Shown one piece after another: positions 3,496-21,943 of a stretch of 32,000 nucleotides of DNA. Made by a program: the position numbers and the translations under genes. The stretch is from Candidatus Saccharimonadota bacterium. Lineage in GTDB: Bacteria > Patescibacteriota > Gracilibacteria > Absconditabacterales > Absconditicoccaceae. The notes under the pieces are model-generated. The model had not been told where the DNA came from and did not search any database. It saw only the letters and a program-made list of their open reading frames with translations. Location: the NCBI GenBank assembly GCA_030429145.1, contig JAUIDC010000001.1:570001-602000 (forward strand), written 5' to 3'. The number at the start of each line of letters is the position of its first letter. The stretch's first letter is position 1.

Positions 3496-3894
3496 TTAGA
3501 GACTTCCGCTTGGAGTATAGCTATCGCTAAGAGGAGATGAGCTTTGTGTATTGAAGAAGTCTCCAAAGCCTTCTGAGCCGACACCCATAATTCTTTTGAT
3601 GATCTGTCCAGCTCTATTGAAGATGTTTTGTGCCGTATAGTATTGATATCCTGCTACTTTCATCTGCTTGAAGAGTATTGGAAATACAAAAAGCAGAACC
3701 AGTGTAACAATGATTCCGAGAATAGTATATCTGATATTCTTTATTGCTTTTTGGATGACGTCGTCTTTTCCGTCTGAGAAAATGAACTGAAAGATAGCGC
3801 GAAAAAGAGAGTAGATAGCTCCGGCAAATATGATAATGATGAGTATAGCCAACACGGTAAGGATAATATCCTGTATAGTGGTGTAGTTAGTCAT
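3496..3894 (-). CDS. Small two-TM membrane protein; topology resembles TrbC/VirB2-like (T4SS-pilin-like) proteins common in CPR genomes
   Basis: 132-aa ORF with two hydrophobic helices flanking ...FIFSDGKDDVIQKAIKNIRYTILGIIV.... The family call rests on remembered motif similarity only. Confidence 0.55.
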   Translation of the reverse strand: MTNYTTIQDIILTVLAILIIIIFAGAIYSLFRAIFQFIFSDGKDDVIQKAIKNIRYTILGIIVTLVLLFVFPILFKQMKVAGYQYYTAQNIFNRAGQIIKRIMGVGSEGFGDFFNTQSSSPLSDSYTPSGSL

Positions 3895-4907: not shown

Positions 4908-5480
4908 ATGACAGAAACGTTTGTACCGAGTTCTTTAGAGACGTCAGGTGGTAGTGAAACAGTCTCAGAAGCTTCTGAACAAGATATTGTCAGGGTTTCT
5001 GAAAGTATGCAGAAGGCAAAACAGATTGGCGCGCAGATCGGGGCAAGTCAGATACAAAATACGAAATTAGCTCACTTTCTCACATACCTTCTGAATACCG
5101 TACAGGATGAAAACATCTGGATCATTCTTATTGATCTCTTTTCAAAGCCGGATGTGACGACAAGTTCAAATACAGCCAATATGGCGCTGGCAGTCAATGA
5201 AATGGTAGCATTGTTTTTGCCATTTTATATGTCAAAAGTCGAGGAGCTTGATATGCAAGAACTCTTTCAAGAGGTTTCTTATCAGATTTCTCTTGATGAA
5301 CATAGCTATATTCAGTATATACATGCTTTGTATCAAGCTTATCCACTTTATGGACAACTTGATAAAGATATCTTGAGTTCTCTTCTCACGGCAATTCTTG
5401 TCTATCATGGACTGACAAAAGAAGAGGAAGAAAGAGATCTTCAGAAGATCGTTAATGAGGTGCGTGCAGCACTCGGTTAA
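4908..5480 (+). CDS. Hypothetical protein (190 aa)
   Basis: Uninterrupted ORF with ATG start and TAA stop. No recognisable motif and no TM segment. Confidence 0.6.
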   Translation: MTETFVPSSLETSGGSETVSEASEQDIVRVSESMQKAKQIGAQIGASQIQNTKLAHFLTYLLNTVQDENIWIILIDLFSKPDVTTSSNTANMALAVNEMVALFLPFYMSKVEELDMQELFQEVSYQISLDEHSYIQYIHALYQAYPLYGQLDKDILSSLLTAILVYHGLTKEEEERDLQKIVNEVRAALG

Positions 5481-5505
5481 TTTATTATATGTGTAGTTGA
5501 TAAAA

Positions 5506-6243
5506 ATGGAAATAGTGCGTATCCAATGATTGAAAAAAGTATTTCGTAAATGGAATAAAAAAATACCTGTACTAATAGGGGTAGATTTTTCAGTGAAGCA
5601 GGGTGAAATCTACGGGTTTTTGGGTGCCAATGGTGTCGGGAAAACAACACTTCTCAAGTGTCTCTTTCACTATATTTCACATCAGGGAGATGTTGAAATT
5701 TTCGGAACGAAAGACTACTATCATCAAAAATATTTTACCCGTATCGGTTACGCACCCGAAGTGACCAATCTTTATCCTTTCCTTCGCGGAAAGGAGCTCC
5801 TTCACTACATGGGGAAGCTTGCAGGTATGAAGACAAAGCTCATAGAGAAGAGATCGAAAGAGCTTTTGGACAAGCTTGGGTTGACCTTTGCTGAGGACCG
5901 CTTGATCGGAGCCTATTCAAAGGGAATGAAGCAAAGACTTTCTCTCGCAGCATCACTCATCAATGATCCAGAACTTATCTTCCGAGATGAGCCCATGTCA
6001 GGACTCGATCCACTAGGGCGTATTATCGTCAAGGACCTGATGAAAGAGCTTAAGGAACAAGGGAAAACACTCTTTTTCAACACGCATATTCTCTCAGATG
6101 TGCAAGAGATCGCGGACAGATTTGGTATCCTTCATAAGGGAAAGATTGTACATGAAGATAAACCAAGTAGTATTCAAGGATCACTCGAGGAGTTCTTTAC
6201 GAAGACTATTAGAGATATTGATAAAAATGTGAAGGTGAAGTAG
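5506..6243 (+). CDS. ABC transporter ATP-binding protein (ABC-2/CcmA-like), recoded N-terminus
   Basis: Walker [10 protein letters not shown], signature YSKGMKQRL, Walker [14 protein letters not shown]-loop NTHIL. ATG 5506 read through TGA 5527-5529 gives MEIVRIQ-G-LKKVF, the usual ABC N-terminal strand. TAG stop. Confidence 0.9.
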
Positions 6244-6336
6244 TCAGAGAAGAAGCGAGAAAATGATGTTTAAGTATATTGTGTAATTTTTTGAAGAAAA
6301 GTCTATGTAAATTTCCCCTATATAGTAGATTGAGAG

Positions 6337-6364
6337 CAGTGGATTTTGTCCCCTGTTTTTTTTT
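6337..6364 (+). terminator. Putative rho-independent terminator after the ABC ATPase gene
   Basis: Stem cagtgg (6337-6342) / cccctg (6350-6355) with one mismatch, 7-nt loop, then T9 (6356-6364). Confidence 0.45.
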
Positions 6365-6408
6365 GATTACACTTTACATTAGAAGATTTTATACCTTTCT
6401 GTGTTACA

Positions 6409-9400
6409 ATGGGTAACGTGTTAGAACTTAGGTTACAGGCTCCAGGTATCAATGGAATTGATATTAATACAACGGAGATGGCAAAGGATTTTGCTGAACT
6501 ACAAAAGAGGTTCAGTGATGAATTTGCGAAAATGAAGGCAAGGCTTGAGCAGAGCAAGACGCTTGATGAGGCAAAGAAATTTCTCAATGATGTGCCTTTG
6601 TATGCTGATGCTGGAAATCTTACTTTGAAAGTGGGAGATAGTTATATCAAAGCAAAAGATAAGGAAGAATTTGATAAATATAAGAACGATATCGAAACGA
6701 CTATGTCGGAGATGAATAAGAAACTTGCTGAGTATGAGCAGAAGATGCTTGAAGAGCAAAAAAAGACCACAGATAACTCAAAGGGTGAGCTTGATGAGGT
6801 AAAGAAAAATGTGACGATTGAAAAGAAAGAGCAGGATGGTATTGTTCGAGAGTATGACAGGCAGACAGGTATTTCTACGTTTACGTTGGAAAATTGGATT
6901 CGCTTGAATCAGCAGAAACAGTGAGATGCTGGTAGTTCGTTCATGGTTGATCCTGCAGGCAAGATGCAAAGTAGACAAGCAAAGCAGCTTGATAGAAGAA
7001 TTGATAGACATATGGACATCAAGAACGAAAAAAGAAAAGCAAGAAAGTTAGAGAAGGATGCGAGAAAAGCAGAAAAGCTGAGAGACAATGTCGCAAGACA
7101 AAAAGACGCCATGGCTCAGATAGGTGGAGATGTAATGGGTGCCGCTGAAAATAGAAAGCAGACGCTCTACTATGAACAAGTCGCAAAACTTGCTATGGAG
7201 GAGTTTAAAAAAGGTAAATATAACGCAGAAGATACTGTCTATATCAACACATACAATCCACTGTTTACTGTCGAGGGATTAAATCCTTCTGGTAAGGTTG
7301 GTATTAGACTCACCCTTGATCAGGTTGCGCAGTACAACGAGAACATGAGAATCTCTAATGATCCTAGATTGGCACCATATCTTTCACAAGAAGACAAAGA
7401 AGTCATCAATAAGGGCGGTATCTTAGGTGCTGGAGTTGACTGGATGGTACAGCATACTAACTATCCTCCAGAAAGTGCACCAGCATTGAAATCAGCTGCA
7501 AAACTTGGTGCGATCATCGGACTAGGTATCCTTGGATGGCAGACGATTAAGAGAGTATTCAATATTGGTGGTAAGTATTCAGCTGGTGAAAGACGAGGTT
7601 GGGGACTTGGTGCACTTGGTGTGTTAGTAGGAGTCCCTGCACTTACTGGTCAGCGTATCGATCAGCTCCTTTTCAGTGGGGATGCAAAGCTTGCATGGGA
7701 AAAGACAAAAGATCTCTTCTCATCTATGGGTATAGAAACGGGAGAACTTCTTTGAAATACCGACGAGAAAGTTATGGATCCTGCTATGGGTAATCTACTC
7801 TTTGGTGGTTTAACCGTAGAGGAAGCAAGAAAATATATCACCTATAAAGATGGCAAGTACACTATGAGACAAAGTGATTTTACTAACTATCTTATAGAGC
7901 AGGAGGCAAAGGAGACGGATCCTGTGAAGAAACAAACATGGAAAGATAAATTAGCTCTTTGGAAGAAGGCCATCCTAGAAAAGAAGGCTGACAAGATTGG
8001 AAACAATTGGGGGAAAAGTATTGGACTCCATGAAGCAGCAGATAAGGATAAAACGACAGAAGAGCTCTATACTGCCTATCTTGAAGGTCTTCACCTTGGT
8101 GCAGGGCTCTTGGCAGGCGATAAGAAATTGAAGATCAAAGACCTTGATGCATTCAATGCATATGTACGTGAGCAGATTGTTGATAAGGGAAGAGATCCTG
8201 CAAGTATCACAAAGAAGGAACTTTTGGAGAAAGATCTCCTTGAAGAGGTTGTCGAAGAAGGCACGAAAGATGCAGATACGAAAGAGGATAATAATAACAC
8301 AAAAAATAATAAACAAAACAACAAACCTGCTGACAATACTGGTACAGCAGAAGATGTTGGAACTCGAGAAAAGGTTACCAATCGAACATCATCAAACTGG
8401 AAGAAGTTTAAGGGAGCTGTCGCTGCGACGGGTGCAACTATTGCGGGGTGGTTTGGTATGAAAAAGAAACCCGATTCTCCACAACTGAAAGCAGCAAAGG
8501 ATAAACTCCAAGAGATGAAAGATAATCTTGCTGAGCTAGAGGCGATGGATGAGACAAAGAGAAAACAGGTTGCAACAGCAGAAGACATTAAGGAAGCAAA
8601 GGATCAGATAAAAGATGCTGAGTATCAGTTGACGCAGATAGAAGCTATGGACAAGGCGATTGATCCTGTCTTGGAGCCACTAGTGAAAAACAAGAAGCTC
8701 TCACAAAATATGGCAGAGCAATTGACGGAAGCAAAAAACAATCTTAATCTCCAGTACGAACTGATCAATCGTAACAATCAACATGCTATGATCCACTTTG
8801 TGGAGGATCATGGACAGCTCTTTGTAGCAAGTTACAACGAACAGTTGCCTATAACTATCGCGGAAAATGCTGACAAAAAGACATTTACAGCGTCTTTGGC
8901 AGACTGTCCACTTCAGTTCAATACGATGGAAAGTCTTGTGCAGACAGCAAATTTTGTAAACTTCCTCGTAATGAACTATCAGTACACTTCGCAGGAAGCA
9001 AATCCGTTCTATGTCGATGGTGATGAGATTTCTATGAGCGGTCCTGGTATAGATAAAGATATGCTTGAGAACTTGTATCCAGATATTCGTCAGCCAAGAA
9101 CTCAGAAGTTTGTAGACTGGTTGAATAATAAAAAGGGTTCCATGGGCGTTTCAATCTGGCTGGAAACAGGAAGACCAAATAATGATGTCTTGAGAACAGT
9201 CAAAGAGCTAGAGCGTGTGAAGTTGGACTCTAGTATATATGGTTGACTTATCTCAGCCCTTCCGTGACAATATGCACGTAAGAAGATTAGCACTATGGAT
9301 GAGAGCGCTTTGAGAAAAAATGCACAGGGAGAAGTGATTGGATATGGTAAGATCGAGGCTGCGTTTGATGGTCAAGGCCTTGTGTTTAAAACACATGGTA

Positions 9401-9756
9401 GAGAGACTGCTATCATGAAAGATGGGAGAGAGTGGAAGGTAGGAGATTTTAAATACTCACTGGAAACGCCACAAGAAGCTCTTTATATAGCTAACTTTGT
9501 TAACTACTGTAAGAGGTATCTTGAATATGCTACCACTGGTACAGAGCCATTTAATATGTCGTTTACTGATAAATATCTTGAGTTTGCTCAGCATTCCGAC
9601 AGAGAGTATCGATGGGGTCTGTCAGACATTAAGAACGACCTGAAACTCGCAAGAAAAGAAGATCTTATCAGAATGTCCAATGTCTTTGCCAATAAAACAG
9701 TCAGAAAAGAGTTCGCGGCATTTCTCAATAGGACATATCCTAAGTGGCATGGATAA
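6409..9756 (+). CDS. Giant hypothetical protein A1 (1115 aa; coiled-coil-like, two Gly-rich hydrophobic segments, duplicated C-terminal module); 4 TGA=Gly
   Basis: Standard-code fragments 6409-6924, 6943-7755, 7774-9246 and 9295-9756 are all in frame 1. They are joined only by TGA (6922, 7753, 9244, 9265), with no TAA/TAG in the gaps (checked codon by codon). First real stop is TAA 9754-9756. Hydrophobic stretches: LGAIIGLGILGW and GWGLGALGVLVGVPAL. Confidence 0.8.
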
Positions 9757-9779
9757 GTATTTACTAATTGATACGCATT

Positions 9780-11819
9780 ATGTGATTTAACGATGTAGAG
9801 AAGCTACAGCCAAAAGATCAAAAAGAAACTCAGAAGAATACTTCTGAAGTTTCTGATAATGCGAAAGTGGATAAGATGCAGGCGACAGATCAAACTACTA
9901 AGGAAACAGAGATCAGTTTGATAGAGCTACAAAAGAGAATTCAACAGATGAAGGCTTCAAAGGAGTATAATGATGAGGACTTAGAGAACTTAGAAAAAGA
10001 TATTCTTGCCGCTAAAAATAATAAAGAAGTGCTCGAAAGAAAGGCGAAACAATTAGATAGTCTTGCAAAGAAGAAAGATCAGACGACAGAAAATCCATCT
10101 CTCTGGAGAAGGTTTCGGTATGGTAGCTTTCTTGGAAATATGATGGACAAGATAGGCTGGGAGTCATGAAAAGAGCGAGCTGATAAAAAGCTACATGAGA
10201 AAAAAGATACTACCAAAAGAGGGTTTCGAGGAAAAGTAGGAGACGCATTTCTTTTTGCTGGCGCATTTCTCCTAGGTAAAAAAACCTTAGGAAAGCTTCA
10301 GGATTGGTTTGCTGAAAAATTTGGAGATGAGAAAAAGGATAAAAAGCCAGATCAACCTAAGACTGTTGTAGATACTGGACAAACAGATGTCGCTCCACAA
10401 GATCAGAATCATACAACTCCTGATAACAATTTAGGAGCAGTGTTGGAGGATGATAAGACGAATCAACCACCATTGCAACATGGAGAGCAGTCGGAAATAG
10501 ATAAAGCGATAGTAGAAGAGGATAAGCTACGTGGAGACGGAGTGAATGATCTCTATATTCTTTCTCGTCTCTTAGGGATGGGATTTGTTCCAAGTAATCT
10601 CTATAGACGACGTCCTGCAAGATTTATGACAAATGCACCATGGAATTTTAAGGTTGCTTTGTCAGCGCTATTGCCATCTATGCGTGAAAGAGTAGTTCGT
10701 GAAAAAGCATATCTTATCTCTCAGTGAGTTAATCAGTATGACTATGATGCTCATCTCAATAAGCTCAGTGCTTTAGAGCAAGATATTAAGACAGGAAAGA
10801 TAACCTCTTTTGATCAGATAAAGAAGAACTATCCAGATTTAATCGATACAAAACCTTCTCGTATAGAGAAATTACTTCGTGATAAAAAATCACCACTCAA
10901 GAGAGTGAAGAAAGAGGCGGAAACAAAGATTGAAACTCTACAAGATCGTGAGCAGGCCATTAGACAAATCGATGGTGAGATGAAGAGTCTCCAAAAAGAG
11001 GCTGCGGCCAAGTATAAAGCACTAGAAGATTTAGATAAAGCCGCTGTCAAAGACCCAGCAAAGAAAAAACAATTGCAGGTGGAGTTAGAAAAAATTACAA
11101 AAGATTTTCAACGTAAACAAGCAGAACTTTATAAAAAAACAGGCGTGGCGCTACAGGGAGTTTCTAACTCTGATATTGTGAAACTCCAAAGATATCAAAT
11201 GGTAGATCATTTAGTTAAAAACAATGGAGGCCGTTTGAAGTTGATAGAGAAGATCAATGGAAGAGGTGGGAGAATTATGATGAGAGTTGGTCTGGCAGGA
11301 TTGTTCTTTAGAGCAGCTGATGATATCGCAGATCAAGGTATTCTTTCAAAGGAAACAGCACTTGATGCTGCAGATCTGGGTATCTGACTTATTCCAGTGG
11401 CTGGTGGTATTTATGACCTTGGTATGGCAATTTATGGAAAGGACCTCAATGGTAGACAGATGTCGACAGCGGATAGGCGAATAAGATGAACAGTGTGAGT
11501 TGGAACTGCTGTATTAGATTTATTCTCATTTGGTGTCGCAGGTACTGCAGTGAGAGCATGAGTCAAAACTACAACGAGAGTTGTAAAGATAGTGAATAAG
11601 ACCGTAGACGCAGAGAAAGCTATTACCAGATGACTGAAGATTGCCGATGATGTCTATAAAGGTACGAAGGTTGTCACTCATGGGGTGATGCTTGGAGGCT
11701 TGACCTACGGTGTTGCTATCAATGCATATGACCTTACCATCGCTTTGAAAGACGGAAGTGAACCGGTCATCGAGGAGATTAAAGCAAACAATACGGATGC
11801 AAGCAAATCAATTACATAA
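9780..11819 (+). CDS. Hypothetical protein A2 (679 aa; coiled-coil N-half, C-terminal pre-toxin-TG-like Gly-rich hydrophobic module); 8 TGA=Gly
   Basis: Starts ATG-TGA-TTT (MGF...) at 9780; an alternative TTG start is at 9768. Fragments 9867-10169, 10440-10727 and 10905-11387 plus the gaps form one frame-3 reading with TGA at 9783, 10167, 10725, 11385, 11487, 11496, 11559 and 11631. TAA stop 11817-11819. All gaps were checked codon by codon. Confidence 0.78.
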
Positions 11820-11842
11820 CTTTATTATACTATTCAATCAAA

Positions 11843-12865
11843 ATGGCACCGCAAGATACATTTGATATGTTACATGAACAACTTCAGGAAGACTCTGCTA
11901 AGCAGAAACTTTCTGCATTACAGGAGGAGATAAAGACACACATCTCTTCACAGGGCATGGGAACAGAAAAAATAGATCAGATTGGTGACGCTCTTGTCAA
12001 TGGTGAGAAGATAGATAATTTCAAACTGGACATAGATGTACTGACAGTTTCTGCATCCATGATCTATGCAAAGAGACTTTCAAAGGATATCATCCTAAGG
12101 TATCTGTCTGGTGACACACCATGGAAGAATCAATCACTCAGTTGGCGAGACTCTCTGAAAGATAAATTTGTCGATAAGATGGTGAGCCTGTTTTCAAAAC
12201 AGAAAGATGCGTATGATGCCATCTTAGCAAAGATAGAGGCTCCAGTTGTACAAAAGTTTCAAGCACAGCTTGATGCATTGAAACAAGAGGTAGGAGTTCT
12301 TCCAGATCCTAATGCTCCTCAGGGTAGCACAGATAACGCTCCTGAAACTATGCAACCGAATAAGATACCTACGTGACTACCTATTGCAGGCATGAAGAAA
12401 GAAGATATTAGTAGTGATCTTTGACATCGTGATGCACCAAAGAAAGGAGCAACGGAGGATCATAAGTGAATAGACATTAAGGTCGATGAGAATACCCCTG
12501 TGTTAGCCACTGCTGATGGAGAAGTGATTGAAGTTGGTGACCAACCAGACGGGGCCGGGAAATATATTTCTATCAATCATGGAGACTATATTACGAGATA
12601 TTTTCATCTCAACACACAGGAGGTGAAAGTGGGAGATAAAGTAAAGAAGGATAAAGTGATTGCAAAAAGTGGAGCAACGGGTAATGTAACATGACCACAC
12701 TTACACTATGAGATTAGGAATACAAAAAAGATTGCCTATCAGGATAAGCAAACAGCATCGAAATATGAGGTGCTTGATCCGGAAAAATATTTAGATTTTG
12801 ATGGTGACGGTAAGGTTGTCGCTCTCAATAGTGATGAGGTAGAAGAGACAACTATAGCAGCATAA
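11843..12865 (+). CDS. M23/LytM-family metallopeptidase domain protein A3 (340 aa; helical N-half, no signal peptide); 4 TGA=Gly
   Basis: The stitched C-half reads LPIAGMKKEDISSDL-G-HRDAPKKGATEDHK-G-IDIKVDENTPVLATADGEVIEVG...YISINHGDYITRYFHL...SGATGNVT-G-PHLHYEIR. This is the full M23 signature (HxxxD, HxH). TGA at 12374, 12422, 12467 and 12692. TAA stop 12863-12865. Confidence 0.92.
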
Positions 12866-12887
12866 TCTTTATTTAATCGACAATATT

Positions 12888-15848
12888 ATGTGATTTGGAG
12901 ATAAAGGAGTAGAACTAACGAAGAAGGTTTCAGACAATGTCGATAATATGCAGATATTGGATGAAAAGAAGGTTTTGGAGCAGACAAAACATGATTTGTT
13001 GCAACTGAAAGATGATGTAAGATATGCTGAAAAGGTTTCAGATGAGTTGGCGAAAGGTGGATGGATAGACAACATCCTTGCTACAGAGCGGAAGAGAAAG
13101 CTTCACGCGCCAGAGCAGAGAGAAAAGCAGGAGGCTGTCAATCAAATAGCTGAGAAAGTTGAAGAAGTTCGTACACAGTTTGATACTTTGTCGGATGATA
13201 AAAAAGAAAAGGTAAAGAAAATGACTGTGGTGCTTCAACAGATTAGAGCAGAGCTTTTTGGTCTACAGCAACAGATTGTCGACACAAAAGCACTTGAGCA
13301 AAAAACGATAGAAGCTGCGACAAAAGAACTTGATAAACATCGGTATTCTCGCTTGCTTGTTGGGCCATATACAAAATATATTCAGAGAAGGTTTGCTTCG
13401 TTGAAACAGACTAATAAGCAAACTGACCTTTCGATCATAGATACAGTGAAGCAAGCTTTTACAGATTTTTATTATCAGGCTATCGGTGTGATTGGCTGAC
13501 GATTTGCTGGTAAATCTGTTGCGGGTATGGTAGATGGGATAAGCCTCGATGCAATCAAGCAAAAAGGTGCCGAGTTGTTGCAGCAGGTAGACCAAGTGTC
13601 TATTGATGATCTGTCTCCTGAGGCACTACAACAGGGTCAGACTATCATGAAGCGTAAGATAGACAGTTTTGTTCAAAAGCAGTTTGGCAAAAAACTGACT
13701 CCAGAACAGTTAGACCGTATTGCAAAAAAGTTAGACACGAAAGATCTTTTGCGCGAAAATAAAACGCTCCTTGATTTTCTCTCGTCATGAGGAAAGGAGT
13801 GAGCTGATGCAAACCTGTTCCATGCTGGTGTGGAGTGATTGGTATTACCTCTGTCTATGATGACGCAGCTTATCTCAGCATTAAAGGAGGAAGGAGTAAT
13901 TGATACGAAAGAGATTGTTTTCAATGTTACATGAGATGTAATAGAGTATGGGCTGAAAGGGTTCAAGCTGTTTGGAAGCGGCTTGGCATTAGTTCTTTGA
14001 AAGGTCTCTCGAGATGAGGTTGGTGGTCAGATGGCTCGCTTGTACGACAAGAGTCCAGATGAGGCAAAACAGCTTCTCTTTGCTTTGATCTATAGAGGAC
14101 AGCACTCGCCAATATTTAAGCTGATGCTCAATACAGGAGAGTGGCTTGCAAAGCTGCCTATGTTCTTCTTGGCAGACATGAATGATAGTGTCAAATCACT
14201 ATGACATATTAAGGATGTCTATAAGGGAAACATAGATACAGCTATTAAACAACTGGAAAAGATATCAGATGTCCTGCCTGCTAACTTTGGGTGAAAAGAC
14301 CTCCAAGATACTGTGAAGGCTGCTAAAGCGAGCGTTAAACAGATGAGTTCAGTCAATGACATGGTAACTATTCTTCATAACATGGATGAAACGGTTTCTG
14401 TCAGTGAATTCAAAAAAAAACTTACAAGAAATGGTATACAGATAGCTGACTTACCACCGAATATTGCGAATGAACTTAAAAATGCTACTGGAGATCTCTC
14501 AAATCAACAACTCAGAAAAATGCTTTCAAGAGATATCTTAGATATCACAAAACAGACAAAAAATGTATTTTGACAGAATTCGTCCCTCTCTAAGTTCTTT
14601 GGTAAGACGAAGGGCTTGTTGAAAGGAGAGGCGAATCCTTATAAGATGATCGATGATATGAGTCGTTATCTCGATGACGTGGGTCAGGAGTGGAGTAAAA
14701 TGGTTCATCATGGCTCATGGTTTACAAAGCAGAAAGCTAAGTTGAAATTGTCAAATAGACTGATGAATGAGACCTTGGAATCAGGTAAATTTATGTATCA
14801 CTTTGATAATGTGACAGACTTTGAAGACTTTGTGAAAAAGAGTAAGTTCTTGATGAAATCGTCTCCGAGTAGTCTTAAGTTCCTTGTAGGAAAATCACCG
14901 ATATTTATCGTATGAGGTCTGGCTGTTGGAGAGGGAGACACTATGTCGGAAAAGATGAAGTCATTGCTGACAGGATTACAGTGACTCGTGCCGTTAGTTT
15001 GACCATATTTGATCATGTCGGATGCCGGTATCATGAAAGATGGTTGACCAGATATGTGACAGCTTGCTCTCGGTGGGGTCCTCATGTGAGTAGATGGATA
15101 TACGCTTGTTAGACGCATGATGAGAAAAGATTTCGTCGGTATGGCGAAATATATGGCGCAGCCTATTGTTGATGTATGGCAGATCGGTAAGTTTTTGGTA
15201 AATGCTGGAAGAAGAGGGCTAGTTCTTGGTAAAGGTTTTGCGACACTTATGCAAAATCAAGGCAGATTAAATACGTTGAAATGAATTGGAAAGAGACTGA
15301 TGACTAAGTCTAGACTTTCAAGAGTAGGTATTTTGACGGCTGTAGCCATATGAGGGTATGTGAGTTGGGATTACCTCTTTTCATCAAATGATTTGGACAA
15401 AGAAACGAAGGATAAGTTGGCTGAATACAAGGATAATCCTGATAAGCTTGATCAAGAAATTCAGCAGAAATGGCCTACTATGACGCAAGACGAAAGAAAT
15501 GATTATCTCAGAGCGGCGGTACTTCGTCAGTGAGGATTTTCGCCTGAGTATCTAGACGATCTTGAGATAGAATTTGCGAACAATCAATATACTGTCTATT
15601 TGCCATCAGTTATCGCGCGTGATGAGGCTATCTATGTGAAAGACTTACTCAGTCAGTGAATTTCTCGTCTCCAGTCTGGTAGTAGCGTAGATGTTCGTTT
15701 TGCATGACCTGCAAGATATCGTTTCACGAAAGAGCTTACTGATCAGTTCGCTGACATCTCTGAAAATGATAGACGTGCAAAGATGGAAGAGTATGTTCGT
15801 ACTATGTGATATACAGATCCAAATATAGCACTTACAAACAATGCATAA
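12888..15848 (+). CDS. Giant hypothetical membrane protein A4 (986 aa); 22 TGA=Gly
   Basis: Starts ATG-TGA-TTT (MGF...) at 12888. Fragments 12948-13499, 13527-13790, 14313-14573 and 14616-14915, plus the fragment-free stretch 14916-15848, are one frame-3 reading with no TAA/TAG until 15846-15848 (every codon in the gaps checked). The N-third is coiled-coil-like. The rest has multiple Gly-rich hydrophobic segments. Confidence 0.8.
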
Positions 15849-15873
15849 ATAACATATTTTTTTGGATATGAGA

Positions 15874-15906
15874 AAAGCTACGGTTAATACCCCGTAGCTT
15901 TTGTGT
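15874..15906 (+). terminator. Rho-independent terminator closing operon A (possibly bidirectional)
   Basis: 10-bp stem aaagctacgg (15874-15883) / ccgtagcttt (15892-15901), 8-nt loop, T/G-rich tail. An A-run on the 5' side would serve the convergent gene. Confidence 0.65.
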
Positions 15907-15929: not shown

Positions 15930-16448
15930 TTAGTTTGTAGTGGTTTCGACTCTTGCGTCAGAACCAAAATGATAATGGAGATTATAGGTGTCCCCCTGAT
16001 TGTCATTTGGTTGCTGGGCATTATCGGCATTTGAGCCACGACCACCATTTCCGCTTCCAGTCCCAGCAGGAGCTCCAGGCCCGCCATAATACACGTTAGT
16101 GATTACTCCACGTTGGGTGCTGTTGCCAGAACAATTTCCACCACCGTAACCCTGAGGAGGTTGGTTATATTGATGTCCTCCTTGGTTCTGCTGGCCAGGT
16201 ATATAATTGCTGTGGTCTGTAGGACGTTGGTTTGCTGGCTGATTGCCATTGTTCCTGTTCCTTCTGAGTCGGTTGTAAAGCCAAACGCCTCCTAAGGTAA
16301 GTCCGATTGCAATGATAATAACCACAATAATCCAACCCCAACCTATGCTACTACTGGTAGAAGTGTTGCTAAGGTCCGTTTGTACGTCTTGCGCTTTTGC
16401 GCTGATCATAGCGGCGATTGCCGCCAATGTTAAAGTTAACTGTTTCAT
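15930..16448 (-). CDS. Hypothetical signal-peptide plus single-TM protein with a G/N/Q/P-rich tail (172 aa)
   Basis: Begins MKQLTLTLAAIAAMISAKAQ (signal-peptide-like), then the TM segment IGWGWIIVVIIIAIGLTLGGVWLY, then RLRRNRNNGNQ and a low-complexity tail. No TGA codons; TAA stop. It is the only minus-strand gene inside the accessory region and is locally GC-richer. Confidence 0.6.
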   Translation of the reverse strand: MKQLTLTLAAIAAMISAKAQDVQTDLSNTSTSSSIGWGWIIVVIIIAIGLTLGGVWLYNRLRRNRNNGNQPANQRPTDHSNYIPGQQNQGGHQYNQPPQGYGGGNCSGNSTQRGVITNVYYGGPGAPAGTGSGNGGRGSNADNAQQPNDNQGDTYNLHYHFGSDARVETTTN

Positions 16449-16596: not shown

Positions 16597-16635
16597 TAGA
16601 TAGAGACAATATTTTTTATCTTGTCGGTGGAGAAA

Positions 16636-17388
16636 ATGATCAATACAGCATCATCTAGTGCAGAACAGGTAAAAACCGCAGTAAATATCAATTTTGCTGA
16701 TTATAAACAGGAACTTCAGACATTCCTTAGACTTTCGGAGAATCAACAAACTCTGGTCGATGTTGTTGCATCTGACCTGACTGCTGCGGGGAGTATACTT
16801 AATCAAGATCCTAATCTGATTGATGACATTGCTGATACAAATGGCGTTGATAGGAAAAGACTAAAAATGGCATACGATATCATCAAAGCGAAAAGTGCCT
16901 GACCAGAACTCTCAAATACTATGTCGGCTGATATCGAAGGAAATACAGAGCCAGAGGTTGACGCAAAAGCTCCTGAGACGCCTGAGCAGAAGATAGCAAG
17001 ACTAACAGCTGAACTGAAAGCAAAAGATAACAGATTGAAAACTATTGAACCAGCTGTGATTGCAGCAGAGCTTGTCACTCATCCGACTAAGCTTCCAAGG
17101 TTCCTTCGTCAGAAGATGCGTAACAGGATGATCGCTCGTAAACCAAGAGATCCATATGCGTTGCTCTACTATATGCGTGATGGACAGCTCAGAAGATTTA
17201 GAAAGACAAAAAATAGAATGAAAAATATTGATAATGTGTATCGTGATTTGAAGGCAAAATACGGACCAGATGCACAAGCGAACGAAAAGTTCATCCATCA
17301 AAAGCGTATCATGGAAAAAAGACGAGCAGTCATTGAGCAGGCATACAAAGCCGTTCAGTGAGTAAAACCTATGAAAGTATCTCTTTAA
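16636..17388 (+). CDS. Hypothetical protein B1 (250 aa; basic C-half); 2 TGA=Gly
   Basis: Fragments 16621-16902 and 16921-17361 share frame 1 and are joined by TGA 16900. Read-through of TGA 17359 reaches TAA 17386-17388. ATG 16636 is preceded by GGTGGAG; TTG 16621 and GTG 16627 are alternative starts. Confidence 0.65.
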
Positions 17389-17409
17389 TCTTCTCAAAAC
17401 AATAGACTC

Positions 17410-17724
17410 ATGAAACTAACTAATGAAATTCAGTCACTTCTTCTTGAGATCCAGCTTGATGCAGATGAGCAGTTGGAAGATATTGTACTGGACGCACAAG
17501 AGTACGGCATGGAATGTATCATCGAGATGGTAACACCAAAGCTTACTCCAGAAGATATTATTGTACTTGATGAGATGATAGATGATGATAAGTCTGTTGA
17601 TGAGCTTGATGAGTGGTTAGGGACGAAAATAGAGGACTATGACTCATACGTGAATAAAGCTCTCGAGATGGTAAAAGAATATCTTCAATGAGAAGAAGAG
17701 GAATTGACCGAAGAACTATCATAA
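17410..17724 (+). CDS. Small, strongly acidic hypothetical protein B2 (104 aa); 1 TGA=Gly
   Basis: ORF 17410-17691 extended through TGA 17689 to TAA 17722-17724. D/E-rich text such as DADEQLEDIVLDAQEY and DEMIDDDKSVDELDEW. Confidence 0.6.
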
Positions 17725-17751
17725 TACAATTTATACAAAAACATATTTACC

Positions 17752-20700
17752 ATGGATGCAAACAAAACTAAAAAGTATCTAGACGAGCGTGCCAATCAAA
17801 AGGTAAATACTCTCCTGAGAAGAGAGACGCTTGGAGACAACTCACAACAGGTGGTGCAGGATATTGCATCAGACCTTTTCTCGTCGCTAGCAAATGAGTT
17901 TGTTGTCAATGATGATACCGTAAATACTCTTAAAAACATCCAGGATAAAACACTTGCGAAATCCAATGAATTTTCTGTCGATAAAGCGAACAAGGAATCA
18001 AAGCATCTTGATCTCAATGTGGAGTTAAACCTATTGGCAAGTAAGATAGCTTCTCTCGAGGATGAATTGAACAACCTTCCATGAGGCAATCAAAATAAAG
18101 GAAAAAGAAACTCGTTGAAAGCTGAAATTAAGAGATTGCAGAACGAGGAAGTGACCAAGACAAAGCAATGGCAAAATCTTGATAAGCTAGAGATACAGAA
18201 GATAAAAGACATCACTAGTCATGTATCTAGTCTGCGAGAGACATATAAAGACATTGCAGAAAAAGCAAAAATTGCTTTCAATGCATCTACAGTGGATCTG
18301 GTAAAGTCTTCTACCCCTCACACCTTAGAAGAGCCAAATATGCTCAACGGTGCACAAAACAAGACATATACAGTATATGCTGGAGGAAATAAAATAGATA
18401 CGTCGGGTAATGAGTTTTCTATGATGATCAATGGTAATAAGTTTACGATTGAAAATTTAAAGTTTGATGAGACAACAAGGAAGCTTGATACAGACAAGAT
18501 CATTGTAAAAGATGCCGATGGAAATGTTGCACAAGACTGACTCGTGATCCCACTGGAATATCGAGCATCTTTCAAGACAAGCGTGAATGATAAGACGAAA
18601 AATGGTACAGAGCAGATGACTTTTGCAGCACAGCAAAGAGTAAATCTACAGCTCACCACAAATAGACTTTCTGCTACAGATCAAGCTTCGGCACTTAAAA
18701 GTAAAAGAGTCAAAATAGATCAGCTCTCAAGTGTCGTCTATAACTCTTTTGATGATGTACGTGATACACTTATCAATGAGATGATTGATACTATTGCGGG
18801 AGAAAATGTGTCTGATGAAAAAAAGAGAAACATAAGAGCAGCGGTGATTGCTCACTTGAACAATGCGGGTTTCAGTTATGATGAAGCTGCATTCAGCGAT
18901 GATGTTGTGAGCAAAGACTCAGTGTTAATTGATGTCGCATACAAAGGGACAAAAAACCAACTCAAGAAAGACATAGAAAATAAACGAACCTCTAATGAGA
19001 TCCTTTCAAAGGTAAGACCTTTCTTGCGTAAACAGCTGGAAGCTAAGTTCTATGATGGATCTGCTGCATGGAATACTGGTGCAAATACTATCAATAGTGT
19101 CATCCTTAGTTCCATCAATGCAGGAAACAATATTGATACAGCTATGCAACAAAGAGTACTTTCGAAACACTCAAATAGAGTCGGTGATTCACTCAATAGA
19201 GTATTTACCGAGCATCTACATGGTGCATTGAGTGAAGAGTTCTCTGCATATATCGATCAGTTTGATGCAGGCACATTTACGAAAGAACAGAAAGACCAAC
19301 TTATCGCTGAGATGGTTAGTCAATACTTTCAACAGTTTACTATGTTGCAGTTCATGCAAGATTATAATAACTGGGCAGATAATTGACTCACGGACAAATC
19401 ATTTAAGGGTAGTGATCAGGTTGCTTACGAGAAGAAATTTCTCGAATTCTTAAGGGCTGGCACACAGGATAGCATCTTTACAAGAGGAAAAAAGAGGTTG
19501 AAGAGCTGGATCGGCGACACATTGGAAAACAATCAAGCTCTCTCAAGAGAGATCCATGACCATATTGACAGGGCTATCAGAGAGAAGGCTGATCCTGTGG
19601 CAAATCTCATTTCGACAACAGCAGGCAACCATACTGTTAATTTGCTCAATCTCTACGAAAGCAATCGTGGTAACTTCTTTCCTGCACAAGACGAAGCGGC
19701 AAGAAGATATAGAGGTATGCCTGGTATTAGAAACATTAGACGTTTGCGAGATCGTAGTTTCCGTGGCGGCCACAATATCAATCGTGAGGTTGTTCGTAAT
19801 GTCCAGAACAACAGCTATATGACCTTCTTTGAGAGGATTGATAATACACAAAATCCAGAATCTATGAAAGATATACAGCTTCCAATGGGACTTGGTAGTG
19901 TAGACATCTCTGTAGGTCTCCAGTATCATCCTTTCCAAGGAAGCCTTGCGCAAAATGGTACGGTCACAGTCAATGTAGCAGGCAAAAATGTGAACGTCGG
20001 TCCAGTGGAGCGTATTTCACATGGTTTTGGTCTTCATGGTATGGTTGAGTCAGTGCTACGCCATAGATTTCATGAAAACGAAAGTGTAAACAATGTCATT
20101 ACTGCAAATGTTGTATTAGCTATGTATAAGTCTTTGGTAAAACAGGCTATAGAGAAGCTCGGAGAACTTCGTGCAGGCAATGAAAGAATATCGCTCAATA
20201 AAAATGGTAACCTTGTGTTTGAGTGAAGAAATGGTCACTTTGATGAGGAGACTTTGCGTGGAAGAAATGATTATAATAATATTTTTCATCAACTTTCATG
20301 GCTCGCGGGAGGCTTCAACTATATCATGCAACACAAGAATGATGACTATATCAATGGTGTTCGCAATAGGCGCTTCAACAGTCCAGGACGTGCAAGTCTT
20401 GGGAGATCGCTTAACCCGCTCTATAGATATAGAAATAGAAACCTGCTTAAAAACAATGTCGAGTTTCAGTGTGATGGTATCCAAGGAACGTACGATAAGC
20501 GAGGTAGATTGACTCTTCAGGTACAGTCTCCAGAAGGTGAGACCATACAGTTGCCACCAAGAAGCAAGATGAAGAAATTTACTGATGCAGTAAGACAGAC
20601 AAACTTGGAGGATATCTTCTCGTCACCACTTGTCTATGGAAGACAGCATGAAATCTTGAAGGCCTTCTATAAGGCTTATCTTGAGAGGTTGTTCCAAAAT

Positions 20701-20955
20701 AGAAGAGTTGCCAGACATGGTTACTGGTTTCAACATGATGGACGCAGATATGCTATCATCAATAGAGGGACGCCTAAAAACCAGCAGCTTTCGTTCTGTG
20801 AGATACAGGCATGAGCTCCTATGCCAGGAGGCAATAGAGCTGGTGTGCTCAACCAAAGTATGGTAAACAGTCTAGAGCCAGTCAATGAAAATATCATTCT
20901 CGGGAATCCTGAGCTTATGAACCAGTTTATCGATGTGATCACGAGACGCGCATAA
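17752..20955 (+). CDS. Giant hypothetical soluble protein B3 (1067 aa); 5 TGA=Gly
   Basis: Fragments 17752-18084, 18115-18540, 18544-19386, 19498-20226 and 20254-20814 are all in frame 1 and joined only by TGA (18082, 18538, 19384, 20224, 20812). Gaps were checked codon by codon. TAA stop 20953-20955. No TM segment or signal peptide seen. Confidence 0.8.
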
Positions 20956-20957
20956 TA

Positions 20958-20985
20958 TTGACATAAAACCATTATTCTCTATAAT
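20958..20985 (+). promoter_or_regulatory. Consensus sigma70 promoter upstream of ORF 21017
   Basis: TTGACA (20958-20963), 16-nt spacer, TATAAT (20980-20985). It begins 3 nt after the B3 stop codon. Confidence 0.6.
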
Positions 20986-21016
20986 CTATAAATAATTTAT
21001 CATCTTTCGGCTTATT

Positions 21017-21943
21017 ATGGCTAAAAATCATAAAAACCAACGTCATCATCACGAAACTTCTCAGGACAGTGCTGAGAAGAAGAAACAGTGAAATGAAAAG
21101 CTGGTGGAAGAGACAAAAGAAGAGCTGGCAGATACTCTGAAAGAAGAGAAGGAGTCTGGTCATAAGGCAGAAAAGCATGAGAATCATGATGAAAATAGAG
21201 ATGCAAATGATACAGAGCAGAAGATCGCAATGAAGAAAGCTCAGCTTCATGCGGCAGAGCCTGTACTAGAAGAGAAAGACCCAGAACCTGCAGCAAAAAA
21301 ACCTTCAAAATCAAAGAAGGAAAGAAAGATAGATCGAAACCCATTGAATTGGGTAAGACATATTGGTACAAGAGCTCTTTCTGGTATCGCTTGATTGCCT
21401 TCAAGAGTTGCAGCAAAGTTCAACCATATAGTGGCAAGACCACAGCAACTAGTAAGCGGAAAGTTTTATAAAGATTTGGGAAAAAACGTTATTAAGACTC
21501 CTGGAGCGATGGTGACGACTGTTACCGGTGCAGTATACAAGCCACATCGTGATAAGGTGAAATTTGAAGATAATTTTAAGGATTATGGTCCGACATTTGG
21601 GCCCGATGCAAAAGATAAGAACTGGTTTGTGAGGAATGGGAAAAAGGCTTTATGGTTCGGTGGCAAATTTGCTATGCCCACCCTGACAGCAGGTACGTGG
21701 TCACTATTTCCTAAGTTCTTTGCCAATGTAGGCAGAGGTCTCAACCATGTTATTCATGAGACGTTTGAAGGCATCAGAGACTCTAAATGGCATTGGAATC
21801 CTAAGAATTGGAACCTTAAGACGTGGAAGTTTAGTAAGACAAAAGAGTCCTTTGGAAAAGCTTTCTCACGAAATAAGAAAGGTAAGTCTCCCGAAGGTAA
21901 GACTATTGCTCTCTCGCCAAAAGAAGAAAAGAAAGCTGCATAG
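21017..21943 (+). CDS. Hypothetical basic protein (308 aa; K/E/H-rich N-half, W/K/G-rich C-half); 2 TGA=Gly
   Basis: From ATG 21017, fragments 21104-21394 and 21395-21943 are in the same frame and joined by TGA 21392, with another TGA at 21089. TAG stop. Confidence 0.65.

Follow-up and report, generated by a model that had tools for sequence, protein, structure and literature searches.

A fast-evolving operon of a code-25 bacterium encodes a predicted wall hydrolase with an exchangeable head, a protein with a probable pre-toxin domain and two orphan giants

The 32,000-nucleotide stretch of DNA analysed here, referred to below as the window, comes from a Candidatus Saccharimonadota bacterium placed by GTDB in the Absconditabacterales (assembly GCA_030429145.1, contig JAUIDC010000001.1, forward strand, positions 570,001 to 602,000). 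Between window positions 6409 and 15848 it carries four genes, A1 to A4, which we call operon A. This is a real operon, conserved within a narrow clade, which brings together one known enzyme domain (an M23 peptidase in A3), one pre-toxin domain (PT-TG in A2, where the window's own score falls short of the Pfam cut-off) and two orphan giants of about 1000 residues (A1 and A4). The working ends of A2 and A3 are exchanged between related genomes on conserved N-terminal modules, and the four genes diverge faster than those around them. The interpretation we favour, tentatively and at somewhat less than an even chance, is that operon A is a clade-specific, fast-evolving polymorphic-effector cassette whose products would be exported without Sec and would attack the envelope of another cell.

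The operon was initially described in a sequence-only reading of this DNA, and its gene models have been confirmed. Open reading frames (ORFs) were defined with TAA and TAG as the sole stops, as in genetic code 25, in which TGA is read as glycine. This code marks the Gracilibacteria/Absconditabacteria part of the CPR (Candidate Phyla Radiation). Stop-to-stop ORFs on the plus strand span 6274–9756, 9768–11819, 11783–12865 and 12858–15848, and starting each at its first ATG yields the four co-directional recoded genes that had been proposed: A1 (1115 aa, 6409–9756), A2 (679 aa, 9780–11819), A3 (340 aa, 11843–12865) and A4 (986 aa, 12888–15848), with 4, 8, 4 and 22 in-frame TGA codons respectively. 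A public gene call for the same genome, translated with TGA as tryptophan, has identical starts and lengths (P0038, P0042, P0043 and P0044, in the order A1 to A4). The calculated chance that a random sequence of the same composition would contain a run of 1115 codons free of TAA and TAG is about 1e-24. The proposal that TGA is read as Gly is confirmed by the IleRS encoded in the window, where TGA occupies Gly positions of the motifs GWDCHG, KGLIYKG and TGQ.R.WF, and by comparisons inside the operon itself, since orthologs of A1–A4 have Gly opposite TGA in 43 of 85 comparisons and Trp in none; Trp is encoded by TGG. A2 and A4 also share an MGF-x-D start (9780–9794 and 12888–12902) in which Gly2 is specified by TGA. 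An MGF, MGG or MGN start is kept in some orthologs and not in others, and the resemblance could be due to chance or could reflect an N-terminal signal.

The AT-rich spacers separating the genes measure 23, 23 and 22 nt, exactly as previously reported, and include no GGAGG-like motif. An intrinsic terminator at 15873–15902 (plus strand; 11-bp stem and U-rich tail; −17.6 kcal/mol, z = −5.0) closes the operon. It was detected by both a terminator scan and folding, and corresponds to the strong terminator earlier placed at 15874–15906. These tiny spacers, together with a single strong terminator, point to co-expression of A1–A4. The second terminator that had been thought probable, upstream of A1 (6337–6364), is less secure: a hairpin followed by T9 does occur at 6332–6364 (plus strand), between an ABC ATPase gene and A1, but it is weak (−12.2 kcal/mol, z = −3.0) and is not listed in the terminator scan. 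It is possibly a terminator or an attenuator.

Contigs from related genomes were re-translated with table 25, those designated L005/L007 and L009 being taken as one genome. The order U4896–ABC–A1–A2–A3–A4, where U4896 is a small orphan gene and ABC the ATPase gene, is found in L001 and, further downstream of fusA, in L002; L004 carries U4896–ABC–A1–A2, and the L005/L007 plus L009 genome carries A1–A2–A3–A4 followed by atpG and IleRS. Gene order is therefore kept in at least four other genomes, which derive from different samples, and this argues that operon A is not a prophage. Sequence divergence is high. Between the window and L002, EF-G is 90% identical, the ABC ATPase 68% and AhpC 62%, compared with 47–51% for A3, 34–36% for A4 and 31–34% for A1; between the window and L009 the values are 82% for AtpG and 59% for IleRS, compared with 36–38% for A4. 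The cassette thus evolves faster than the neighbouring genes. In a more distant locus, L003 (protein P0014), the U4896–ABC–A1 trio is kept and A1 is only about 23% identical.

A3 provides the only known enzyme domain of the operon. Its M23 (LytM-type) domain (12458–12727, plus strand; residues 206–295) matches Pfam PF01551 with an E-value of 1.2e-29 and 102.7 bits (cut-off 28.7), as expected from the M23 peptidase noted in the sequence-only reading. The active site is intact, with H207-K-G-I-D211 (HxxxD), H247 and H286-L-H288 (HxH), and among NCBIfam models the domain is closest to the DD-endopeptidases MepM/ShyA. From its sequence, A3 is predicted to be an active peptidoglycan endopeptidase. 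With a complete set of M23 residues it must presumably meet peptidoglycan and, having no Sec signal, would have to leave the cytoplasm by another route.

The M23 domain is preceded by a helical N-terminal module of about 165 aa (11843–12337, plus strand), delimited with an alignment of four orthologs, which is conserved whichever head follows it and matches nothing in family libraries or the PDB. The L001 and L009 orthologs join this N-module to an NlpC/P60 head in place of M23. The L009 head scores 24.6 bits against a gathering threshold of 23, and the catalytic Cys motif (IDCSGL/IDCSAL) is present. The type of head does not track the relationships of the N-modules: the closest N-modules are those of L002 (M23) and L009 (NlpC/P60), at 43% identity, whereas L001 and L009 are 60% identical in their NlpC/P60 heads and just 20% in their N-modules. 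An LXG-like ‘L[ST]G’ motif in the N-module was considered and rejected, as two of the four orthologs lack it and Pfam does not support it.

A2 is built on a similar plan and exists in two forms. The short form is found in the window, L004 and L009 (45–48% identity to the window for L004 and L009, with L009 at 48%) and the long form (1105–1120 aa) in L001 and L002. Comparison of the two by hhalign (97.7%, E 2e-12) aligns residues 1–117 only, which defines a shared N-terminal module of about 117 aa (9780–10130, plus strand). A2 therefore carries a variable C-terminal cargo on a conserved N-terminus. Residues 530–575 of the short form (11367–11504, plus strand) correspond to the PT-TG pre-toxin domain (Pfam PF14449), with the motif P.AGG.YD.G.A..GKDLNGR..S..DR. 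The window protein scores 17.9–19.6 bits (E 3e-3 to 9e-4), below the gathering threshold of 23.5, and the L009 ortholog lies above it with 24.4 bits; the Gly, Asp and Arg residues of the PT-TG core loop are conserved in the window's A2. The domain is followed by a C-terminal segment of about 100 aa rich in Gly, Val and Thr (11505–11816, plus strand), which matches no family, is conserved in L009 (GVMLGGLTYGVAINAYD vs GLMFGGLTYGVGINVYD) and is located where PT-TG proteins carry their toxin domain. No LXG, WXG, VgrG, Rhs or FHA trafficking domain was detected in residues 1–529 with Pfam and NCBIfam.

A survey of 347,289 genomes ties PT-TG to polymorphic toxins of the type VI and type VII secretion systems (T6SS, T7SS) and of contact-dependent growth inhibition (CDI), and its text never mentions Patescibacteria (bioRxiv 10.1101/2025.10.01.679605). 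Small Gly-rich, membrane-depolarising C-terminal toxins have precedents in EsxX (PMC12744356), TelE (PMC10434224) and Tse5 (PMC9637101). All four possible pairings of A2 form and A3 head occur among the five genomes compared, a combinatorial pattern of the kind seen in polymorphic effector loci.

A1 and A4 are conserved over their full length. The earlier statement that A1, A2 and A4 belong to no recognisable family holds for A1 and A4 in our library searches but not for A2, given its PT-TG domain. Neither giant gave a match in Pfam, PHROGs, NCBIfam, PADLOC or PDB sequence searches. An A1 profile run with HMMER against the full set of 1.84 billion representatives returned 26 matches, all of them A1 fragments or orthologs; a word-index homolog search with A1 returned one match and a metagenome scan one locus. 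Among GTDB species genomes no relative was retrieved with automatic A1 patterns, nor with the degenerate pattern GA[IL]IG[LM]G[IV]LGW, which gave just 8 chance matches in unrelated phyla. For A4 there was no family, PDB or phage match in any library, and word-index searches were empty both for the protein and for an alignment of four A4 sequences, an outcome probably due to saturation of the index by K/E-rich words. Apart from the N-terminus of A2, hhalign comparisons among the A1–A4 families disclosed no hidden paralogy. On the evidence of these searches, A1 and A4 appear to have no relatives outside the narrow clade. In the public protein collection this genome is represented by table-11 fragments or by proteins in which TGA is translated as Trp (P0038, P0042–P0044 and P0047), so that the A4 entry contains 22 wrong Trp residues. 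Such fragmentation and mistranslation hide these families from exact, word-based and standard searches.

A1 orthologs in L001, L002, L004 and L005 are 31–36% identical to the window protein. The most conserved block, residues 330–425 (7396–7683, plus strand), is near-invariant in the alignment and includes two Gly-rich hydrophobic stretches, LGAIIGLGILGW and GWGLGALGVLVGVPALTGQ, with Hessa insertion energies of +6.0 and +6.9, which do not correspond to classical transmembrane (TM) helices; the AlphaFold2 (AF2) pLDDT of this block is 25–46. The AF2 model, obtained from the public TGA=W translation and 25 homologous fragments, is confident in two regions and poor elsewhere: a compact, mostly helical domain at residues 450–615 (7756–8253, plus strand; pLDDT 83–97) and long coiled-coil-like helices at residues 660–786 (8386–8766, plus strand; H661–684, H691–711, H724–745 and H766–786; pLDDT 75–93). 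Foldseek searches with the model, including the 450–615 domain, gave no match in the PDB and only non-significant long-helix look-alikes in BFVD.

The C-terminal part of A1 contains a repeated module of about 100 aa with beta strands, a long helix and an ANxxNF (ANLTNF-like) motif. Copy 1 (8776–9048, plus strand) was recognised in the alignment and copy 2 (9346–9588, plus strand) with hhalign (97.6%, E 4e-12 between the two); a cropped AF2 model of the module has a low pLDDT of 45. Copy 1 of the window aligns with copy 2 of the A1 of L001. There are two copies in the window (8776–9588) and three in the distant homolog P0014.

A4 orthologs (L001, L002 and L009) are 32–38% identical and the whole length is conserved in four genomes. 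The best-conserved block, residues 655–740 (14850–15107, plus strand), contains invariant columns (LKFLVGKSPIFIVGGLA ... GLVPLVGP ... GVD), with insertion energies of +6.5 and +7.1.

The sequence-only reading had attributed glycine-zipper-like membrane segments to these proteins. Gly-rich hydrophobic stretches are indeed real and form the best-conserved parts of A1 and A4, but they fail tests of both hydrophobicity and motif. On the Hessa scale, which is crude, the best 19-mers of A1, A2 and A4 have values of +5.4 to +6.9 kcal/mol, in the range of the soluble IleRS and IF2 of the window (+6.3 to +6.8) and distant from its true membrane proteins (−2.7 to 0), and enrichment of the canonical glycine-zipper motif is confined to the A1 of the window. 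The four N-termini are all hydrophilic, which indicates that there is no Sec signal, as had been claimed. With insertion energies equal to those of soluble proteins of the window, A1–A4 are by default taken to be soluble products made in the cytoplasm.

The window is chromosomal and operon A is embedded among housekeeping genes. Upstream are fusA, a gene for a membrane protein, AhpC, a 132-aa membrane protein, S16, L33, tRNA-Met, tRNA-Ser, U4896 and the ABC ATPase; downstream are a small membrane protein gene on the minus strand, three orphan genes designated operon B, atpG, an IscU-like gene, IleRS, a Na/Pi transporter and IF2. The ABC ATPase (5506–6243, plus strand) is of the DrrA subfamily (NCBIfam drrA, 6.5e-54, 183 bits) and reaches only 90 bits against the FtsE profile, whose cut-off is 265. 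It ends 165 nt before A1, contrary to the earlier statement that the locus has no ATPase, and is possibly associated with the operon, since every related locus has it directly upstream of A1. U4896 (4908–5480, plus strand) encodes an acidic orphan protein of 190 aa with no family match in the profile libraries, including NCBIfam; its homologs lie 5′ of the ABC gene in L001, L002, L004 and L003, and it too may be associated. The pair precedes A1 in every related locus (4908–6243 in the window, L003:247–1644), and no ABC-2 permease is found near it. The proposal that the four genes form a self-contained system is probably incorrect, given the conserved U4896–ABC pair directly upstream of A1 and the lack of a recognisable export engine.

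Other neighbours include the 132-aa two-helix membrane protein (3496–3894, minus strand), 2.5 kb upstream, which has a sub-threshold match to T4SS_pilin (PF18895; E 0.004; 17.6 bits, cut-off 26.6); L001 and L002 have a similarly sized gene in this position. Immediately after A4, on the opposite strand (15930–16448, minus strand), is a gene whose small product has a signal peptide, a single TM helix and a tail rich in Gly, Asn and Gln, and a gene of similar build follows the A1 homolog in L003 (L003:6540–7237, minus strand). Might this protein be an anchor or an immunity protein? Operon B (window 16633–21943; L009:5688–11678; L001:15439–16861) is variable among relatives: B2 is 60% identical in L009, where unrelated ORFs of 1077 and 558 aa stand in place of B0 and B1 (1067 aa), and the 1077-aa ORF has a homolog after A4 in L001 as well. 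The operon B ORFs have no Pfam or PHROG match.

In the mechanism that we propose for a polymorphic-effector cassette, A2 and A3 would be cargo proteins, each consisting of an N-terminal helical handle (about 117 and 165 aa respectively) and an exchangeable working end. That of A3 would be a peptidoglycan endopeptidase, M23 here and NlpC/P60 in relatives; that of A2 would be PT-TG with its small Gly-rich C-terminal domain, replaced in some relatives by a wholly different body of about 1000 aa. All four proteins would be made in the cytoplasm and delivered by a non-Sec route, with A1 and A4, about 1000 aa long and conserved throughout, acting as a carrier, adaptor or conduit that binds the handles. 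A3 would then open the wall of a contacted cell, whether host or prey, or perhaps that of the producer itself so that the complex could pass, and A2 would act on the envelope exposed in this way. The resemblance to the attack machinery proposed for epibiotic or predatory CPR bacteria that the sequence-only reading had invoked is taken up here in this conditional sense. The mechanism is consistent with the lifestyle of cultured Absconditabacteria, which are predators that have to breach the wall of their host (PMC8080830, PMC11452946).

Several observations weigh against this interpretation. The PT-TG match of the window's own A2 is below the Pfam cut-off; the C-terminus of A2 has no canonical glycine zipper and no toxin-family match, and the short form, at 45–50% identity, is fairly conserved rather than hypervariable. 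Neither A2 nor A3 is followed by an immunity-like gene: only 23 nt separate A2 from the start of A3, and no small ORF lies in that gap. The 32-kb window encodes no export engine, whether EssC-, VirB4- or VgrG-like or a holin, and the part given to A1 and A4 in secretion is conjectural. In L003, what comes after the A1 homolog is a terminator and a gene on the opposite strand; A2–A4 do not follow directly. A housekeeping role, too, would be compatible with the conserved place of the operon among housekeeping genes. Finally, the comparison covers only five genomes.

The main rival explanation, a possible one to which we give distinctly less weight, is that operon A serves the remodelling of the cell's own wall, A3 being a division, separation or growth hydrolase that its coiled-coil N-module holds and switches, and A1, A2 and A4 its clade-specific envelope or cytoskeletal partners. 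EnvC, PcsB, CwlO and RipC, which are controlled by FtsEX, combine a coiled-coil module with M23 or NlpC/P60 domains, and this is the very range of architectures displayed by A3. The fixed position of the operon among housekeeping genes in all relatives, the ABC ATPase gene always found directly upstream, the lack of an immunity gene and the full-length conservation of A1, A4 and the A3 N-module all fit such a role. However, the ATPase is DrrA-type and not FtsE, the window encodes no FtsX-like permease, A3 lacks the signal peptide that all four hydrolases possess, and its N-module matches no EnvC- or PcsB-type structure by sequence. Head swapping between close relatives and a PT-TG domain in A2 would be unusual for housekeeping wall enzymes, and A1–A4 diverge much faster than their housekeeping neighbours. 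An alternative that extends the unit upstream seems unlikely to us: an envelope device driven by ATP would be made up of U4896, the ABC ATPase and A1, the last being an unusual membrane or mechanotransducing partner, and A2–A4 would have been added later as substrates or accessories. It would explain why the trio occurs in every locus, including L003, where A1 is so divergent and A2–A4 do not directly follow, and why the hydrophobic helix pair is the most conserved part of A1. It accounts less well for the 165-nt gap, with its hairpin and T-run, between the ABC gene and A1; moreover, DrrA-type ATPases normally pair with six-helix ABC-2 permeases and A1 has no segment that scores as TM, and adjacency is weak evidence because the neighbouring housekeeping genes are syntenic too.

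Least probable of all, and in our view very unlikely, is that operon A is a domesticated or decaying phage or mobile-element module in which A1, A2 and A4 would be tape-measure- or ejection-like proteins and A3 would be a lysin associated with the virion. Operon A does resemble tape-measure and ejection proteins in its long helices, in its hydrophobic stretches rich in Gly and in an M23 domain that lacks a signal peptide. The A3 M23 domain matches tape-measure PHROGs, one A3 N-module ortholog matches Pfam TMP_3 (E 0.005), and the best BFVD Foldseek matches of the A1 model are annotated ‘minor tail’ and ‘tape measure’ (E 2e-3). Those structural matches, however, have a probability of at most 0.25, a TM-score of 0.07 and an rmsd above 35 Å, and reflect generic long-helix similarity. 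A1, A2 and A4 match no PHROG, and both tblastn searches of 50,697 phage genomes with A1 and A4 and scans of IMG/VR were negative. As already noted in the sequence-only reading, no capsid, portal, terminase or integrase gene is present in the window; tail genes and plasmid-type genes are likewise missing, and the flanks encode EF-G, S16, L33, tRNAs, AtpG and IleRS. The operon also occupies the same chromosomal position in genomes whose IleRS are just 59% identical. An anti-phage defence system was rejected as well, PADLOC giving only generic ATPase matches on the ABC protein.

The searches, which for A1 included Foldseek, assigned none of A1, A2 and A4 to a known machine, and comparison of the whole locus with known systems gives a similar picture. 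Operon A works most like a polymorphic-effector locus, yet it lacks several of the features that define membership of every named system. Like PT-TG polymorphic toxins (T7SS LXG/WXG, T6SS and CDI), it has N-terminal handles with exchangeable C-terminal cargo, a PT-TG match just ahead of a C-terminal module, no Sec signal, rapid divergence and module reshuffling between relatives; small Gly-rich C-terminal toxins are also known in such loci. Unlike them, it lacks a known trafficking domain, a secretion ATPase within the window, an immunity gene and, in A2, both a recognisable toxin family and a canonical glycine zipper; its cargo genes lie between two orphans of about 1000 aa, and its host is a code-25 member of the CPR. 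For the T7SS in particular, no EssC/FtsK-SpoIIIE ATPase and no WXG100 proteins were found in the 32-kb window. The FtsEX-controlled hydrolases share with A3 a helical N-module followed by an M23 or NlpC/P60-type domain and a nearby ABC ATPase gene. A3 differs from EnvC in its intact active site, and from the group in its lack of a signal peptide and Sec export, in the type of ATPase, in the absence of FtsX and in a head that varies between close relatives. Phage tape-measure and ejection proteins with lysins (T5 Pb2-like), which are meant to cross the envelope of another cell, are similarly large, helical proteins with Gly-rich hydrophobic stretches, M23 domains and no signal peptides; operon A differs from them in that it matches none of them by sequence or structure, is accompanied by no genes for tail, head or packaging, keeps a stable chromosomal position and has its hydrolase as a separate small protein. 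The VirB1-type hydrolases found in conjugation systems of Gram-positive bacteria (PrgK, CwlT and TcpG) resemble A3 in being modular wall hydrolases, with LytM and CHAP/NlpC-P60 domains, inside an envelope-crossing operon. Unlike them, A3 has no membrane anchor, and the VirB4 and VirD4 ATPases, VirB6 and relaxase of type IV secretion (T4SS) and conjugation are not found in the window, where the T4SS_pilin match at 3496–3894 is the only, sub-threshold, trace of such a system.

The genomes of CPR epibionts and predators are not known to encode classical contact-dependent secretion systems. Operon A provides concrete, clonable candidates for the breaching of their hosts: a predicted wall hydrolase that is not Sec-exportable and a protein bearing a toxin hallmark, both with cassette-like swapping, together with two conserved orphan giants, A1 and A4, which might be the missing carrier. 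A bolder suggestion, which we consider improbable as matters stand, is that A1 and A4, possibly driven by the U4896–ABC pair, constitute a new Sec-independent delivery apparatus of code-25 CPR epibionts. If so, this apparatus, confined to one clade, would bring a wall-cutting enzyme and a PT-TG effector, both with exchangeable heads, into the host cell or onto its surface and would represent a new contact-dependent secretion or injection system in ultra-small genomes. Should the operon instead have a housekeeping function, it would illustrate a new mode of wall-hydrolase control in minimal cells.

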